A DNA stretch of 64,000 nt from Gammaproteobacteria bacterium (GCA_013001905.1 JABDLC010000102.1:279-64278), one strand, 5' to 3'; shown: positions 54,901-58,900, counted from the first letter of the stretch. The notes: generated by a model from the letters alone, not told the origin. Numbers and translations: made by a program.

Positions 54901-55724
54901 TGGAGCGGGGCGCCCCGCAGCTGTTCGCGCCAGTAATCCAGTTCCTGTTCCAGCGCGGGGCCGGCGAGATGGTCACGTTGCCAGGCTGCGTATTCGGCAT
55001 AGCTGACGCGCAGCTCCGCGAGCTCCGCCTGAGTGCCGCCGGTCAGTTCGCCATACAGTGCGGCCCATTCGCGCATAACGATGCCGGCGGACGCGCCGTC
55101 AGTCGCAATGTGATGCACGACAAACAGCAGAATGTATTCGTCAAAATCGGTTTGCAGCAGGTGTGCCCGGAAAACCGGGCCGGCCATCAGATCGAAGGGT
55201 TGATTGTTGAGTTCGGTAAGTTGCGCCTGAAGCGCGTCCGGGTCCGCGTCGCGGCAGTCATGCGCGGTTATCGCAACCGGCGCGGCAGGCTGCAGGATCG
55301 CAACCGGATCGCGACCGCGGGTTGCATACCGGCACCGCAACGCCTGATGCCTCTCGGTGACCAGTCGCAGCGCTTCCGCCAATGCGGCAGTGTCGGGAAT
55401 TCCGTGCAGCCGGAGTGCTGACGGTACGTTGTACAGGGTCGACCCGGGCTCCAGCTGGTCTAAAAACCACAGGCGTTCCTGTGCGAAAGACAGGGGCAGG
55501 GCGTCCTGATCCAGTGTTCCTGCGAATGACTGTATTCCGCCATCGTCAACGTCACCGGCGGGCGCCGCGAGCAAACTGATCAGCTCGCTCTTGTGGCGCA
55601 CAAGTTGGTCACGGAGTTCGGGTGTCAGACCGCCCTTGGGCGCACTGATCCGGAGGTCTGTGCCGTCCACAGACAACGTGATCCCCTGCTCATTCAGCAG
55701 TGCGAGTAATTCTATAGCGGTCAT
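33909..55724 (-). CDS. NRPS B, 6 modules: dd-C-A-T-C-A-T-C-A(NMT)-T-C-A-T-C-A-T-E-C-A-T-basic tail
   Basis: 7271-aa ORF with ATG at 55724. Carrier Ser codons at 52503-05, 49374-76, 45030-32, 41859-61, 38685-87 and 34107-09. All C and E domains have HHxxxD. Confidence 0.98.
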   Translation of the reverse strand: MTAIELLALLNEQGITLSVDGTDLRISAPKGGLTPELRDQLVRHKSELISLLAAPAGDVDDGGIQSFAGTLDQDALPLSFAQERLWFLDQLEPGSTLYNVPSALRLHGIPDTAALAEALRLVTERHQALRCRYATRGRDPVAILQPAAPVAITAHDCRDADPDALQAQLTELNNQPFDLMAGPVFRAHLLQTDFDEYILLFVVHHIATDGASAGIVMREWAALYGELTGGTQAELAELRVSYAEYAAWQRDHLAGPALEQELDYWREQLRGAPLQLDLPADKSRPQNPAREGGWVMELLPLKLLEQLRGVARAHQSTLYMVLLAAFNLLLYRYSRQDDILIGTPVAGRSRTETEGLVGLFVNSVVIRSRFSEDQTFADLLAEVNTASLDAINHQELPFEKLVEELQPERNTAVAPLFQVMFNLQNREHETVPFADIATSPVVVETGTAKFDLSVLMEDRSDGLAAWFEYSKDLYNADSIERMLGHYRKLLASIVAQPSAKLAELSLLEDDERQQLNEWNAMAADYPDDATLVSLFEAQVAATPDSAAVTFGGETLSYAQLNARANKLARYLKQHGVMRESLVGVCMERSLDMVVALYGILKAGGAYVPLDPDYPQQRLAHMLEDARITVILSQSHLSDRLPKSNASIVNTNIGWDAIQISYCAADNPALIAQADNAAYVIFTSGSTGRPKGVLNEHRGIVNRLLWMQDEYGLDADDRVLQKTPYSFDVSVWEFFLPLLTGAELIVAEPGGHKDTTYLTGVIREYGITTLHFVPSMLRSFLDDPDAGECTSLQRVICSGEALPADLQNRFFAMLNTGLHNLYGPTEAAIDVTYWPCERDRGQTNVPIGRPVANTQIYIVDTAGHPCPPGIPGELLIGGVQVARGYVNRPELTDERFIADYLSGADGMRLYRTGDLARFRGDGVIEFLGRIDFQVKLRGFRIELGEIETALQQCDGVAQVAVLLREDEPGDQRLAAYYVSSRDHVSAEALRAQAAESLPDYMIPAAFIALDELPLTASGKLDRNALPAPDWSSVAAVDYVPPRTPEEEALCEIWADLLNVARVGIHDDFFRIGGHSLLAARVVARIRDTLRKELTLKALFDHPTVAELSTTMQDADEVSGEPLQPRDAGTPVPLSASQQRLWILDQLDPGNCAYNIPWATRLRGELNVNALQSAINKLADRHATLRTAFVAGGKQPLQQVSDSVELPLHMLSCSEADLQRELTRLTQHSFALDQAPLVRITLLRLAADDHVLHINMHHIIGDAWSTDVFRRELSALYNAELQNTDAALPELPVQFADYAVWQAERLQSAAIQDSVSYWTGQLADAPAVLNLPTDRPRPAVQTYNGAWQELRIPRELTTALKRLANERDVTLYMLLLTAFDVLLNRYTGQDDIVIGTPVAGRQQGALENLIGFFINTLALRTRIPEDTTFAGLLAQVKDTALDAYAQQELPFEQLVEEIQPVRDTSYAPIFQVMFILQNAPDTVTGFAGLDAEPVLFSFGTAKLDLTLSMEERNGELIAYFEYNTDLFDPETVAQMGGHFAGLLEQATEQPDAALTSIDLLSDDERRQIIDDVNKTGRPYPDDQPIHELFMQQAAATPDAIAVECAGEQLSYADLDARSNALAMQLVRLGAGPGVPIALCLHRTTELPVALLAILKAGSAYVPLDPEFPADRLTYMLEDSAAPVLVTESSLAGVADGLDITTLCLDRQKPEHSLAAPAVDSSTTELAYVIYTSGSTGKPKGVAIEHRAAVNFLCSMIREPGINANDRWLGVTTLSFDISILEIFGPLLAGATVVLATRDTVIDGFALARTLENDDISVMQATPATWRMLLQTGWRGGEQLKMLCGGESLDAELARELAGCGAELWNMYGPTETTIWSTCERIHADVETVTVGRPIANTRCYVLDEQLNPVPPGVAGELFIGGDGVAREYLNRPELTAEKFIADPFVADPTAASGRMYSTGDLARLRRDGRLDILGRVDFQVKLRGFRIELGEIEAAAATLDGIDQCVTVLREDSPGDQRLVAYYTTDGAAPDHEALRSCLRERLPEYMVPAAFIELDSFPLTPNAKVDRNQLPAPVWQAQQEYVAPRTELEETLATIWREVLDVDQVGIYDDFFALGGHSLLATRLISRILDDTGLELPFMTLFNQPTIDGLSRALEGRNATGSRSLTRLPRDGKLPLSFAQQRLWFLDELSPGDPMYNIPWVMGLHGEPDSAALQTAIDGVIARHESLRTIFPNHDGEPQQVILPELPVTLAEEDLRDRSEAEIQARLTELAQQRMSIASGPLTCITLLRTGADQFLLVLVIHHIVFDAWSHGILLTELAQRYNAALAGKQTDLPPLDLEFADYAGWQREWFESPDFTQQLHYWKHKLGDAPGTLELPTDFPRPPVQTSNGANISRMLSQEAHDGIKALSEREGVSLFMTLLAAFNTLMSRYSGQDDLLVGTPVSGRNRSELEKIVGFFLHTLVIRADLTGNPGFREFLARTRQTVLEAFAHQEMPFETLVEALDPERDTSRHPLFQVHFVLQHVDIDWEMFDGLTASPQEFEFGTAKFDIMFFVFDANDKLSVRLEYNTDLFAAETIERMIDHFETLLADIIANPDQRVGELQILPEEERNKLLVGWNDTTYDYPAGQTMHGKFEATAQRQPDAIALWHGGTEFSYRELNRRANKLAAQLRSFGVGPEILAAVCSERCPEMIIGMLAIQKAGGAYVPVDPDYPPQRVAHMLNDSEAPVLLTQSPLLERLPEHNATIICLDEFDWSTDDTHDINYDSGVNDANLGYVIYTSGSTGLPKGVEIEHRNAVALIEWAGASFAPGEFAGVLASTSICFDLSVYEIFVPLGLGGRIVLVKDALALPELDPAANVTLINSVPSAMAELVRIKGVPETVKTVNLAGEPLSTALVNSIYELGMVERVNDLYGPSEDTTYSTWTLRRANALPTIGRPIYNTQAYVLDPYGEPVPAGVPGELFLAGAGVTRGYRNRSELTAQRYVTNPFDSDNPRMYRTGDKVRYDNEGQLQFMGRLDHQVKLRGFRIELGEIETALASHPAVENTVVMAREDREGDKRLVAYIVASTEGLEGEELEQWETEQVNQWQDLWQEAYNADSDADDLSLDFKGWNSSYSGEPIPREEMLDWLQTTTARILANNPQRIVEIGSGTGLIVGQVAPHVSQYTATDFSAASVNALQALKDSRTDLANVELRQCKADQIDTFAPACCDVVVLNSVAQYFPDIEYFKHFIAAAVERVSDGGHIFLGDLRSASLLEAYHTSVQLHQADDELPVNELAELIRQRTEQEEELLIDPAFFIALQAELPAITGVRFELKRSRYRNELTRFRYDVTLEVSGSDTLAVPEHLDWNDAGLSLSALRQRLEGDDDLLITAIPDARLQTETFALAALAHPDDSSTAELRAAADAQPNGIEAEDLYTLAEELGRDLQLTGTLPGQMTALFSRSATPRFDGALLHAARPVPWRDYGNDPLQGRLQRSLVPILKEKLAVAVPEYMMPSAFVIMDAFPLTPNGKINRKALPAPERKRSEQEVYVAPRTPVEEDLAGIWTQVLGIKQIGVHDDFFALGGHSLLATQLISRIRDQLKTELPLLALFNHPTVAGLAEQITGDAASAATAAITVCDRNDTLPLSFAQQRLWFLDQLEGISATYNVPLALQLDGRIDVGSLQQSINDLVARHESLRTTFADNNGKPAQVILDSLDIAVDIVSLPDASEDELQAHLEALVQTPFNLAEDALVRVHLLRSDDRRSILLLLMHHIVSDGWSLGILAREIATLYAGYCTDQPVTLPELPIQYADYAVWQRNWLTGNELKRQLDYWDNQLAGAPALLQLPTDRPRQAVQTFNGAHINRTYSIELGEQLRQLAGAEDCTLFMVLLAAYNVLLARYTGEDDIVVGTPIAGRTRSEIEGLIGFFVNTLALRTDLAEDPDFLTVLQRAKQSALAAYAHQELPFEKLVEELQPGRDTSHPPIFQTLFVLQENLSDDIAFHGTDVTPLDFELGSAKFDLSLFMVEFSDGLTASFEYNTDLFDRSTIEAMLQHLGTLLESIAADPTQRVSELPLLDPRARAATVDAFLPPPAALPQARVHELVEQQAANNSAAIALEHAGTQLTFGELNERANRLARALQSAGAVPGTLIGILANRGIDQAVSVLATLKTGAAYIPIDPNYPEDRIVYMLEDSRAPVVVTDQALSDELGIHSPHVVSLNDFDWQHGDARNLNVAGGESVYVIYTSGSTGLPKGVELTHAGLNNLIQWQNSQPGLDQPARTLQFAALSFDVSFQELFTTWAQGGTVVLVDESLRRDLNHLARFIATAAIERVYLPFAALQPLAEAVVGNDEGYIIRDVIVAGEQLQITPAVRAMFSKLDSARLHNHYGPSETHVVTAYTLPANKDEWMALPPIGRQVANTGTYILDARLQPVPVGVPGELYLGGAQVAKGYIHRADLTAERFIADPFDANDARRMYRTGDRVRMLPDGNIEYLGRTDDQVKWRGFRIEPGEIETCLAEHRSVAQAAVLLREDSPGDKRLVAYIVAEDAHNPDTTELRDWVKARLPDYMVPSAVMQLDAMPLTPSGKVARRKLPAPDYADAARGYVAPRTPVEETLAAIWSDVLDTAGAGLRIGMHDDFFELGGHSLLATQLMARVRDVMDVELPLVALFNHPTIAEFAGDVAEAGGADSLAPLQPRDRAADETRELPLSFAQQRLWFLDQLEPGNPVYNIPWAMRLTGQLNLDALQASVNDLVARHESLRTIFASELGKAQQQILDHVAVEIERADAVAADDSSIELQLFALSRQPFELDKSPLMRVHLISLAEDEHVLLLVLHHIISDGWSIGVLYQELTTLYAGHCRGEPARLPSLPVQYADYALWQQQWADSPAQQTQLDYWKQRLAGAPAILELPTDRPRGSTQTYNGAFIEKVLPDAIYQGLRDLSRQEGATLFMVCLAAFNVLLSRYSGQKDISVGTPIAGRRHSELDGLIGFFINTLVMRNDLGHADDGSELTFTECVARVRKTALDAFAHQELPFEKLVDELHPSRDMSHAPLFQTAFIMQNTPWDQTAELQNLRVDPLELDYGVAKFDLSLVMAERREGLLVHFEYNTDLFDASTIERLTGHFETLLLAVVGDVNAPVARLPLLTAGERQQILYDWNDTAAVYAHDSCIHHLFEARVKEQPNAPAVLYQHNILTYAQLNARANRLAHYLISKGAGPGSIIGISLERTPELLTAILAIFKSGSAYVPLDPNYPKDRLEWMLTDTAAPILLTQSNLLDDLPPHDAETVCVDTQWDEIALQPEDDPINRATCGDIAYVIYTSGSTGKPKGVMIPHQGVCNLANAQERAFGLGPDDRMLQFASISFDASIFEIVMGLQVGATMVLAPQDDLLPGEPLLEVLQRHAVTAVTLPPTALTQLPSVSLPSLHTITVAGEACPPELVDSWANDKRRFFNLYGPTESTVWASYTRCHPGQRITIGKPISNARLYVLDELQQPVPVGVPGELCIGGAGLALGYLNRPELSAEKFIADPFRADEDARIYRSGDLVRYLPDGNLEFLGRIDHQVKVRGFRIELGEIENALGEHDDVREAIVVARGGDIAARQLVAYIVAHNNRELSVADLRAHLQTRLPDFMVPAVFVELEEFPLTPNRKVDRDALPEPDEHRLTQESEYVAPRTAAEIALADIWQAVLNLEQVGINDNFFELGGDSILSIQIIARAAQAQVHLTPKQLFEHQTIAELAAAAASERTVDAEQDTVTGAVALTPIQAWYAGREPVDAHHFNQSQLLESTRDLNVGVLNEALNIVMKHHDALRLTVATDHSSWAQQQSDQSKRDLVRMVNLRALTREEQARHTLALANALQAGFDLESGPLLRALLFKRSRDLPDQLLIAVHHMAIDWVSWNILLQDLQTAYNALLENQSVQLPLKTSSFRAWSEKLAGWANADELQSEIRYWTGQNWSAAGNIACDHTDAANNEASARDVTVWLSEDETRQLQQELPKAWRAQINDVLLTGVARAIGNWTGGDAVAINLEGHGREDLFDDIDLSRTIGWFTSLYPVLLPASPDTDMNSALANVKQYLRDIPNKGLGYGVLRYLASSAQTRAAMATVPEPEIGFNYLGQLDQVAGDDGLLRPSFEPRGMEQSPQAERPHLLDIAMAVVDGRLQISVIYSDNRHTQDTAAHIANDIAGSLRRLIDDCTRGDAPVYTAADFPLAALSQSQLDGLLSVTGPVDDLYNVTPLQHGMLFHSLYSGDKDVYFARFCWRLSGALDAGHFAAAWQQAVDRNTSLRTSFRFDGLDDPVQIVNRDVSVDLQQLDWSADSEETQNARLSEFLEQDQNTRFDFNNAPLLRLALIRLGDHDHRFVWSFHHAILDGWSVPLILKEVFAIYDALCAGTDPSLPEPAPFSNYLLWLNRQDNASAETFWRQTLQGFSAPTPLPGALVQQLPPGVEPNYAENLLQIEAETVSQLREIAQQSRVTLNTIVQGVWALLLSRYSGEDDVMFGATTSGRPAEMDGVAQMIGLFLNTLPARVRVDGDAGLIEWLQEIQAQQLELRQYEFASLVEVQGWSDMPRGTQMFGSMLAFENYPDMETMWTDTDSITIREVDGFDRTNFPLTLNVAAFDMMQVRMVYSTDMFADEAITRLADHFRILIEALVDNPAARVADLSLLTPDERHHLLVELNDTATEFPQDVTLQTLFEDQVARTPDAEALVFAGESLSYREFNARANQLAHWLQQAGARPNDLIGVHTERSFEMLIAIYGVLKAGAAYVPLDPEYPEQRLQHMLEDAEVSIILTHSACADRLPASGARVFNLSTGAAHLDPLPTTNPAPVAGPTDLAYTIFTSGSTGRPKGVMNEHRGICNRMLWQSSVFDTDGNVRAMQKTPYSFDVSLWELFWPLQTGGTLVIAKPGGHRDSRYLCELIQEQRIDMIHFVPSMLQVFLQDPNATNCPTIRHVLCSGEALPYDLTERFFAISDAELHNLYGPTEAAIEVAYWRCERDSEVPAVPIGFPTANTKLYIVEESGDPAPVGVAGELWIGGVQVARGYVNRPELTDERFIADPFSDDPAARVYRTGDLVRYRDDGAIEYLGRIDHQVKLRGFRIELGEIEAAIDANESVAQSVVMVRERSAGNQQLVAYLIPAIGDTPDTMPNIETLQKELGRQLPDYMVPSVFVTLEEFPLLSNGKVDRKALPEPEWVSEREYVAPRNDIEETLARIWQDILDVEQVGIHDDFFALGGHSLIAIKLVARVLEKMQVDVPLDKLFETPTVAALADTVAARRDSGQTDAGIAPITRKQRRRRRKPTK
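33912..33947 (-). other. Poly-basic C-terminal tail of NRPS B (RKQRRRRRKPTK)
   Basis: Read directly: CGC AAG CAA CGA CGG CGC CGG CGC AAG CCA ACG AAA TAG. Confidence 0.9.
33951..37205 (-). other. NRPS module B6: C(DCL)-A-T, code DVWHLSLIEK (Ser-like variant)
   Basis: YTAADFPL...TPLQHGMLFHS, HHAILDGWS, FDVSLWE, IHFVPS, LCSGEA, HNLYGPTEAAIEV, GGHSLI (Ser 34107-09). Confidence 0.78.
37215..38552 (-). other. Epimerisation (E) domain of module B5
   Basis: Follows a GGDSILSIQI carrier. LTPIQAWY, HHMAIDWVSW, LEGHGRE, NYLGQL. Confidence 0.82.
37215..41685 (-). other. NRPS module B5: C(LCL)-A-T-E, code DAFTTALVWK (unassigned; D-residue expected)
   Basis: HHIISDGWS, FDASIFE, VTLPPT, ITVAGEA, FNLYGPTESTVWAS, GGDSIL (Ser 38685-87). 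Confidence 0.78.
41725..44865 (-). other. NRPS module B4: C(LCL)-A-T, code DVQYIAHVVK (Pro)
   Basis: HHIVSDGWS, FDVSFQE, VYLPFAAL, VIVAGEQ, HNHYGPSETHVVTA, GGHSLL (Ser 41859-61). Confidence 0.8.
44895..49215 (-). other. NRPS module B3: C(LCL)-A[NMT]-T, code DLYNNALTYK (Ala-like, so N-Me-Ala)
   Basis: HHIVFDAWS, FDLSVYE, LINSVPS, VNLAGEP, NDLYGPSEDTTYS, GGHSLL (Ser 45030-32). Confidence 0.78.
45280..46520 (-). other. N-methyltransferase domain inserted between A8 and A9/A10 of the module B3 A domain
   Basis: SAM motif IVEIGSGTGLIVG (about 46270-46310), NSVAQYFP, NELTRFRYDVTL. Flanked by KLRGFRIELGEIE (about 46630-46675) and VPEYMMPSAF...PNGKINRK (about 45187-45265). Confidence 0.85.
49240..52345 (-). 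other. NRPS module B2: C(LCL)-A-T, code DILQLGMIWK (Gly-like)
   Basis: HHIIGDAWS, FDISILE, MQATPATW, LCGGES, NMYGPTETTIWST, GGHSLL (Ser 49374-76). Confidence 0.8.
52370..55505 (-). other. NRPS module B1: C(LCL)-A-T, code DVWHISLIDK (Ser-like)
   Basis: LPLSFAQERLWFLDQ, HHIATDGAS, FDVSVWE, LHFVPS, ICSGEA, HNLYGPTEAAIDV, IGGHSLL (Ser 52503-05). Confidence 0.8.
55560..55724 (-). other. TubC-type N-terminal docking domain of NRPS B
   Basis: MTAIELLALLNEQGITLSVDGTDLRISAPKGGLTPELRDQLVRHKSELISLLAA. Confidence 0.78.

Positions 55725-58900: not shown

Follow-up and report, generated by a model that had tools for sequence, protein, structure and literature searches.

The junction between NRPS A and NRPS B

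The DNA analysed here, referred to as the window, is a stretch of 64,000 nt (G000:C24:279-64278) within the 2.42 Mb, 92 % complete assembly of a marine, uncultured gammaproteobacterium whose genome is ∼2.4 Mb in size. The large genes of the window all lie on the minus strand, as does every feature for which coordinates are given below, and they include two nonribosomal peptide synthetase (NRPS) genes, A (55980..63746) and B (33909..55724), whose junction is the subject of this study. At this junction the initial annotation had proposed a pair of docking elements within positions 55560-56030. These coordinates do indeed frame an N-terminal domain of B (55569-55724), an intergenic gap of 255 nt (55725-55979), and a C-terminal tail of A together with its stop codon (55980-56030).

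Translation of A gave a C-terminus of AAIATLQKVRTEAPEVDDSDREEFRI, thus ending in DDSDREEFRI (a longer stretch reads KVRTEAPEVDDSDREEFRI), directly before the stop codon at 55980-55982. The docking tail, a short linear motif (SLiM) with the sequence TEAPEVDDSDREEFRI, occupies 55983..56030 and follows the last carrier (PP-binding) domain of the protein, the chain donor, at 56052..56243 (Pfam PF00550, 55.6 bits). The Pfam match to this carrier stops 23 residues short of the stop codon and, as the end of the domain can be variously placed, the length of the tail is 16-23 aa. With its acidic residues and hydrophobic last residue, it fits the consensus of natural tails, R-E-E-[GFI]-x-[LI]. The carrier-borne acidic tail that had been noticed at the end of A was therefore a correct observation: a PP-binding domain, then DREEFRI.

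The N-terminus of B (MTAIELLALLNEQGITLSVDGTDLRISAPKGGLTPELRDQLVRHKSELISLL) comprises a docking domain of approximately residues 1-53 (55569..55724), a flexible linker of ∼20 aa (55509..55568), recognized from a drop in the predicted local distance difference test (pLDDT) past residue 53, and a first condensation domain that begins at approximately residue 73. The TubC_N profile (PF18563) matched residues 5-52 with 62.3 bits (E-value 4.5e-17; cut-off 26), and the PDB sequences matched by the domain were those of the AerJ beta-hairpin docking domain (bHD; 1.8e-9), EpoB, TubC, the enacyloxin bHD-condensation protein 6cgo and Kj12B/C. An AlphaFold2 model built from 33 aligned docking domains had a mean pLDDT of 82, with helices at residues 3-12, 35-43 and 45-53 and beta strands at residues 16-20 and 23-27 (the latter, beta2, being D23-L-R-I-S27). 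When this model was compared with the PDB using Foldseek, the top ten structures were all beta-hairpin docking domains, with query-normalised template modelling (TM) scores of 0.72-0.83 for nine of them and 0.51 for TubC. The TubC_N fold that the initial annotation assigned to B, naming PF18563 and the fold as the points to check, is thus borne out by the profile, the PDB sequence matches, the predicted structure and the consensus of the facing tail.

Two other modes of docking were considered for this junction and rejected. Docking of the PAX type does not apply, as the N-terminus of B is a beta-hairpin domain and not a lone helix that inserts between two tail helices; nor does docking of the COM type, as A ends in a carrier, has no epimerization domain before its tail, and faces a separate folded receiver.

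A structural template for the pair is provided by the Kj12C-NDD/Kj12B-CDD complex of N- and C-terminal docking domains (PDB 6EWV; PMC6195595), in which the five last tail residues alone bind, antiparallel to beta2. Numbering the last tail residue as P0 and counting backwards, P0 and P-4 are buried in this complex, Y27 is packed on Gly P-2, and salt bridges connect R24 to Glu P-1 and E28 to Arg P-3 (PMC6195595). We numbered receiver positions from a gapless alignment of the A docking domain to Kj12C-NDD, which puts R24, Y27 and E28 where that paper has them; on this scale, D23-S27 in beta2 of B are positions 24-28. At the interface positions of 6EWV the A tail and beta2 of B are complementary, in line with the covariation of natural pairs described below. 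By homology to Kj12C/Kj12B, the last five residues of A (EEFRI) are predicted to pair as a strand with beta2 of B, forming the third strand of a sheet. Ile P0 would then sit in a hydrophobic pocket, Phe P-2 would be packed on Ile26, and Glu P-3 would come within reach of Arg25, whilst Arg P-1 would meet Asp23 in a polarity opposite to that of the usual Glu/Arg-Lys pair. NRPS A would in this way be held non-covalently to NRPS B, whose first condensation domain would then receive the chain from the last carrier of A. From the above, we consider it likely that the A tail and the N-terminal domain of B are a cognate SLiM/bHD docking pair, belonging to a known and widespread class.

An 18-module assembly line and its other junctions

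Extension of the contig beyond the right edge of the window revealed a fifth synthetase, Z (1946 aa; L004:39-5879), the stop codon of which lies at approximately 63760, 13 nt ahead of the start codon (ATG) of A, so that the line reads Z, A, B, C, D. Motif and Pfam scans defined the following architectures, where A, T, C, Cy and MT denote adenylation, thiolation (carrier), condensation, heterocyclization and methyltransferase domains: Z is A-T-Cy-A-T-oxidase-tail (with matches to a nitroreductase-type oxidase and PP-binding); A is bHD-C-A(MT)-T-C-A-T-tail; B has a bHD, six modules and a basic tail; C has two modules and a tail, without a bHD; and D has a bHD, six modules and the single, terminal thioesterase of the line. 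Because Z is counted in, the total is 18 modules (2+2+6+2+6, in the order Z>A>B>C>D), not 16. The domain order of Z (A-T-Cy-A-T followed by a nitroreductase-type oxidase) implies a putative thiazole- or oxazole-containing N-terminus of the peptide. One relative (G002) has an orthologous cluster, the proteins of which share 67 % (Z), 65 % (B), 63 % (C) and 50 % (D) identity with those of the present line. The nearest named records are metagenome-assembled genomes labelled Gammaproteobacteria or Chromatiales. No close orthologues were found in named genomes, and the product is for this reason not tied to any known compound. The docking pair bears out the order of the subunits, Z>A>B>C>D, in this orphan 18-module peptide line.

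Two further junctions are of the same class as that between A and B (A>B). At Z>A, a docking tail ending in GADERDEGEI (63763..63810) follows the oxidase domain of Z and is the partner of a TubC_N docking domain at the start of A (63579..63746; Pfam, 63 bits; beta2 R27-L-R-Y-S31). At C>D, a tail ending in EDDEDREEFEL (27438..27485), with a PP-binding domain upstream, faces the TubC_N docking domain of D (27286..27438; Pfam, 55.8 bits; beta2 K23-L-S-V-N27). In a PDB sequence search the A domain matched AerJ with an E-value of 5.5e-12, and the match lists of A and D resemble that of B; NRPS C had no TubC_N match in Pfam. Across the whole genome there are exactly three TubC_N domains (A, B and D) and three tails of the R-[DE]-[DE] type (Z, A and C), all of them in this cluster. 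As such, the three receivers listed by the initial annotation stand, as does the C tail ending in DREEFEL, which is present in the translation; the two acidic tails that it counted in the window, however, leave out a third, that of Z (ending in ADERDEGEI at the stop codon), which serves the receiver of A. The C and D genes are coupled in translation by an overlap, GTGA, and this favours cognate assembly.

The remaining junction, B>C (33825..33953), joins a basic B tail, RKQRRRRRKPTK, to an acidic C head, MTESTHTSVDALNDANNDAGEFE, and has no TubC_N domain. This arrangement is kept in G002, where B ends in SSRRRRKKD and C begins with MTEQQDKPLMSSPGNPDSDYVFE; the combination of basic tail and acidic head is a docking mode unrelated to that of the other junctions, and possibly one that has yet to be described.

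The present A is itself a fusion of genes that are separate in relatives. In G002 (compared via L109, G002:C11) these are A1 (1554 aa) and A2 (1133 aa), and A1 and A2 of similar sizes are found in G005, G008, G017 and G024. The fusion point falls at 59199-59210, corresponding to approximately residues 1513-1516 of A. The A1 tail (ending in DDLEEIEI before its stop codon) and the entire TubC_N domain of A2 are cleanly gone, leaving a linker in which GAAPDAGDIDAG is joined directly to PELAIADRTQPLPLSF. The fusion amounts to a natural deletion of one docking pair, which fits with such elements serving only as non-covalent connectors. It could also be taken to mean that tail and docking domain are dispensable remnants and that contacts between carrier and condensation domains alone set subunit order, given that the present A works as a fusion lacking the A1/A2 pair, its catalytic domains having no need of the pair when covalently linked. 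At the orthologous A>B junction, however, both elements are kept in all relatives examined and change in concert; moreover, in studied systems their removal or mutation upsets binding and alters products. We therefore judge dispensability to be highly unlikely, and a cognate docking pair at A>B remains the preferred reading.

The 255-nt gap between A and B (55725..55979) sets this junction apart from the others in the cluster, which overlap or are separated by ≤ 13 nt. Across an alignment of eight intergenic regions, the gap measures 227-270 nt in five of the seven relatives, and 87 and 334 nt in the remaining pair. Within it lie the promoter-like hexamers TTGCCT (55844-55849) and TAGACT (55822-55827), 16 nt apart and matching eight of 12 consensus positions, a palindrome, TTATGAGACTTTCATAA (55913-55929), and a hairpin, CTATTGCAAGCAATAG, that follows a run of seven A residues ∼20 nt ahead of the ATG of B (55745-55760). 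A simple promoter scan flagged nothing in the gap sequence of the present genome, and flagged as promoter-like the G002 counterpart, TTGCCA-16-TAGATT with an upstream TG. We found no noteworthy ORFs in the gap, and no Rfam match at E ≤ 1. The conserved gap length, hexamers, palindrome and hairpin suggest that B-C-D may form a transcription unit with its own promoter.

Covariation of tail and receiver residues, and the prospects for cross-docking

The three junctions of the class differ at two readable tail positions and at the residues that face them. The Z tail has Glu at P-1 and Gly at P-2, opposite a receiver (A) in which positions 24/26/27/28 are R/R/Y/S; the A tail has Arg and Phe at these positions, opposite D/R/I/S in B; and the C tail has Glu and Phe, opposite K/S/V/N in D. 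All three adjacent pairs are complementary, being Gly/Tyr with Glu/Arg, Phe/Ile with Arg/Asp, and Phe/Val with Glu/Lys, respectively. Natural pairs, each defined as a docking domain and the C-terminus of the gene directly upstream, were drawn from three sources, namely 75 loci that span many phyla, 66 sites in 27 same-family genomes, and one further scan. The beta2 columns were registered by anchoring on RLRYSAP, and 107 pairs remained once duplicates were dropped.

In this set, Gly at P-2 accompanies an aromatic residue at position 27 in 35 of 36 pairs, and a non-Gly residue accompanies a non-aromatic one in 70 of 71. A size rule, which pairs Gly with an aromatic residue and any other residue with an aliphatic one or Cys, thus holds for 105 of the 107 natural pairs; of the two exceptions, one is a dubious tail and the other has Ala at P-2. 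The pairs in Supplementary Table 3 of Hacker et al. (PMC6195595) obey the same Gly/aromatic rule, and binding of the Kj12 tail became 'weak' upon exchange of Gly for Ala at P-2 or of Arg for Glu at P-3 (Hacker et al., PMC6195595). We did not find the size rule as a general statement in the docking-domain literature searched; if general, it would be a simple predictor of tail-receiver partners in lines with multiple junctions. Applied to the present line, it makes Z>A exclusive, removing A>A, C>A, Z>B and Z>D. Iterative use of A (A>A) was also rejected on the residues involved, as Phe would be opposite Tyr30, and Arg opposite Arg27 and Arg29.

Charges at P-1 and position 24 covary as well. An acidic P-1 occurs with a basic position 24 in 42 of 52 pairs, compared with 13 of 55 otherwise; a basic P-1 occurs with an acidic position 24 in 10 of 15, compared with eight of 92 otherwise, and with an acid at position 24, 26 or 28 in 14 of 15. 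Like charges at P-1 and position 24 are confined to four of the 107 pairs; in three of these, a charge at position 26 or 28 compensates, and in the fourth (L073, receiver DLRCN) the Arg in position 26 could serve. Fisher p-values for these associations were approximately 1e-6 to 1e-9, ignoring kinship among the pairs. Within the diverse set (the 75 loci across many phyla) there were no basic P-1 tails, and an acidic position 24 was seen in one receiver besides B; with both so scarce, the two features of A>B are rare outside the family. At the orthologous A>B junctions the residues at P-1/position 24 are R/D in the present genome and R/D, R/H, H/D, T/N, S/Q and S/Q in relatives, whilst at C>D they are E/K in the present genome and Q/Q and E/R in relatives; P-1 and position 24 thus shift together from one relative to another.

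Docking junctions of this type are also common in the wider family. Among the same-family genomes G001-G036 (uncultured gammaproteobacteria of ∼2-3.5 Mb), 26 of 36 have TubC_N junctions, with up to six each. The same family has a conserved NRPS of ∼3200 aa, in which a partner tail R-E-V-[VIL]-R-[LIF] and an acidic beta2, [DE]L[EL][VL]D, display fully reversed polarity.

The initial annotation had described the A and C tails as nearly identical, and had on this basis thought it conceivable that A docks on D, skipping B and C. The likeness is real, as six of the last seven residues are common to both tails; the sole difference, however, is Arg versus Glu at P-1, which is a specificity position. 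Near-identical tails are, as such, an unsafe basis for predicting cross-talk. As P-1 is the residue that bridges to position 24 in the Kj12 complex, and the receivers are matched to it (Asp in B, Lys in D), docking of A on D is disfavoured. Specifically, Arg P-1 would be opposite Lys23, and neither Ser25 nor Asn27 would give it an acidic partner, whereas an acid occupies position 24, 26 or 28 in 14 of the 15 natural pairs whose P-1 is basic, and none of the 107 combines a basic P-1 and a basic position 24 without a nearby acid. The Arg/Asp and Glu/Lys matches look selected for cognate pairing, and the genome has one receiver for each tail. Several features point the other way. The two tails share R-E-E-F at P-5 to P-2, and position 27 is a small aliphatic residue in B and D alike, such that P-2/position 27, the most powerful discriminator, fails to tell the two apart. 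The hairpin of D has a net charge of +3 and the A tail one of −5, SLiM/bHD pairs are promiscuous in rhabdopeptide synthetases and in vitro, and A and B are in seemingly separate transcription units, so that subunit ratios could vary. In addition, Kj12C-NDD binds its native tail with a dissociation constant of 15 μM, which rises to 24 μM upon exchange of Glu for Ala at P-1 and to 64 μM upon exchange for Arg (Hacker et al., PMC6195595); as charge reversal costs only about four-fold, A could still dock on D at a low level. On balance, it is improbable that the A tail also uses the D receiver and that Z+A+D gives rise to 10-module congeners beside the 18-module product.

The converse, in which the C tail docks back on the B receiver and causes iterative B-C cycles or stalling, seems to us very improbable. 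C and B do share the same P-2/position 27 class (Phe/Ile), and Arg25 of B (position 26) could pair with Glu P-1, as in three natural pairs (L081, L132 and L073) in which P-1 and position 24 are acidic and position 26 is basic. Nevertheless, Glu P-1 would be opposite Asp23, and the C tail (net charge −10) would meet a B hairpin of −1; the GTGA overlap of C and D favours their cognate assembly, and the one thioesterase, on D, ends the line. Overall, A>D and C>B are both predicted to be less favourable than the cognate pairs.

The cognate pairing of A with B, and the role that we assign to these residues, have to be weighed against several points. We infer the binding of the A tail to B, its strength and the size of any discrimination from sequence and from homology to Kj12; as the TubC docking domain is a dimer with another proposed interface, the Kj12 binding mode is perhaps not exactly transferable. 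The pairs are phylogenetically related, such that the Fisher p-values overstate the support, and the 15 cases of a basic P-1 come from approximately three junction lineages. One orthologous junction (G008) has Arg at P-1 opposite His, without an acidic partner. Furthermore, the charge reversal in Kj12 had just the four-fold effect given above, and the overall electrostatics of the A tail and the D hairpin would attract A to D.

With these reservations, we tentatively propose a two-position code, comprising the size class at P-2/27 and the charge at P-1/24, that could set subunit order in the 18-module line, although we stop short of favouring it outright. Read by itself, this putative code yields the order in which the genes lie (Z, A, B, C, D). 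If it is true, A>B is a rare variant of reversed polarity that is held apart from C>D by selection, and relatives with a split or fused A are natural controls. The presence of three junctions of one class in a single line, differing at two readable positions that covary among some hundred natural pairs, offers a cheap sequence rule for partner assignment, and the same rule can guide the choice of mutually exclusive docking pairs for the engineering of split synthetases.

Comparison with known docking systems

More than 1400 SLiM/bHD pairs have been reported, and some of their tails follow oxidase domains, as in Z. The initial annotation had placed this docking fold in both rhabdopeptide and PAX synthetases. 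The first attribution is apt, as Kj12 of the Xenorhabdus rhabdopeptide system belongs to the same class; the second is not, as PAX synthetase docking forms a three-helix bundle (PDB 6TRP), which is a class apart from SLiM/bHD (PMC9113145).

Like Kj12B-CDD/Kj12C-NDD (PDB 6EWV; PMC6195595), the present system joins a carrier-borne tail to a bHD-condensation protein at a junction between NRPS subunits, and shares with it a gapless alignment, a hydrophobic C-terminal residue and charge pairs on beta2. Identity is ∼27 %, however, and Kj12 has the tail L-R-G-E-I, in which Gly is packed against Tyr and P-1 and P-3 form salt bridges, whereas A>B has Phe/Ile packing and the reversed polarity at P-1/position 24. 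The Kj12 subunits are also iterative by design, whilst the present line is long and collinear. The best match in both sequence and structure is the bHD of the AerJ halogenase (PDB 8aqq; TM 0.78, root mean square deviation 0.8 Å, 45 % identity), although in AerJ the domain is borne by a trans-acting halogenase and not by a condensation domain. TubB/TubC (tubulysin), EpoA/EpoB (epothilone) and Bamb_5917/Bamb_5915 (enacyloxin) share the Pfam family, the fold and the use of a short C-terminal motif as partner; they differ in that they are polyketide synthase-NRPS or chain-release junctions, and in that the TubC domain is dimeric. Finally, the Pseudomonas T-OxRed-CDD/NDD-C pairs described by Hacker et al., with tails EEFEV or EEIEI and receivers [KR]LRCK, have the E-E-F-E-x motif and the non-aromatic position 27 in common with C>D, and their architecture, in which the tail follows an oxidase, resembles that of Z. 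Unlike those pairs, the oxidase-borne tail of the present line is of the Gly class, and its Phe-class tails follow carriers.

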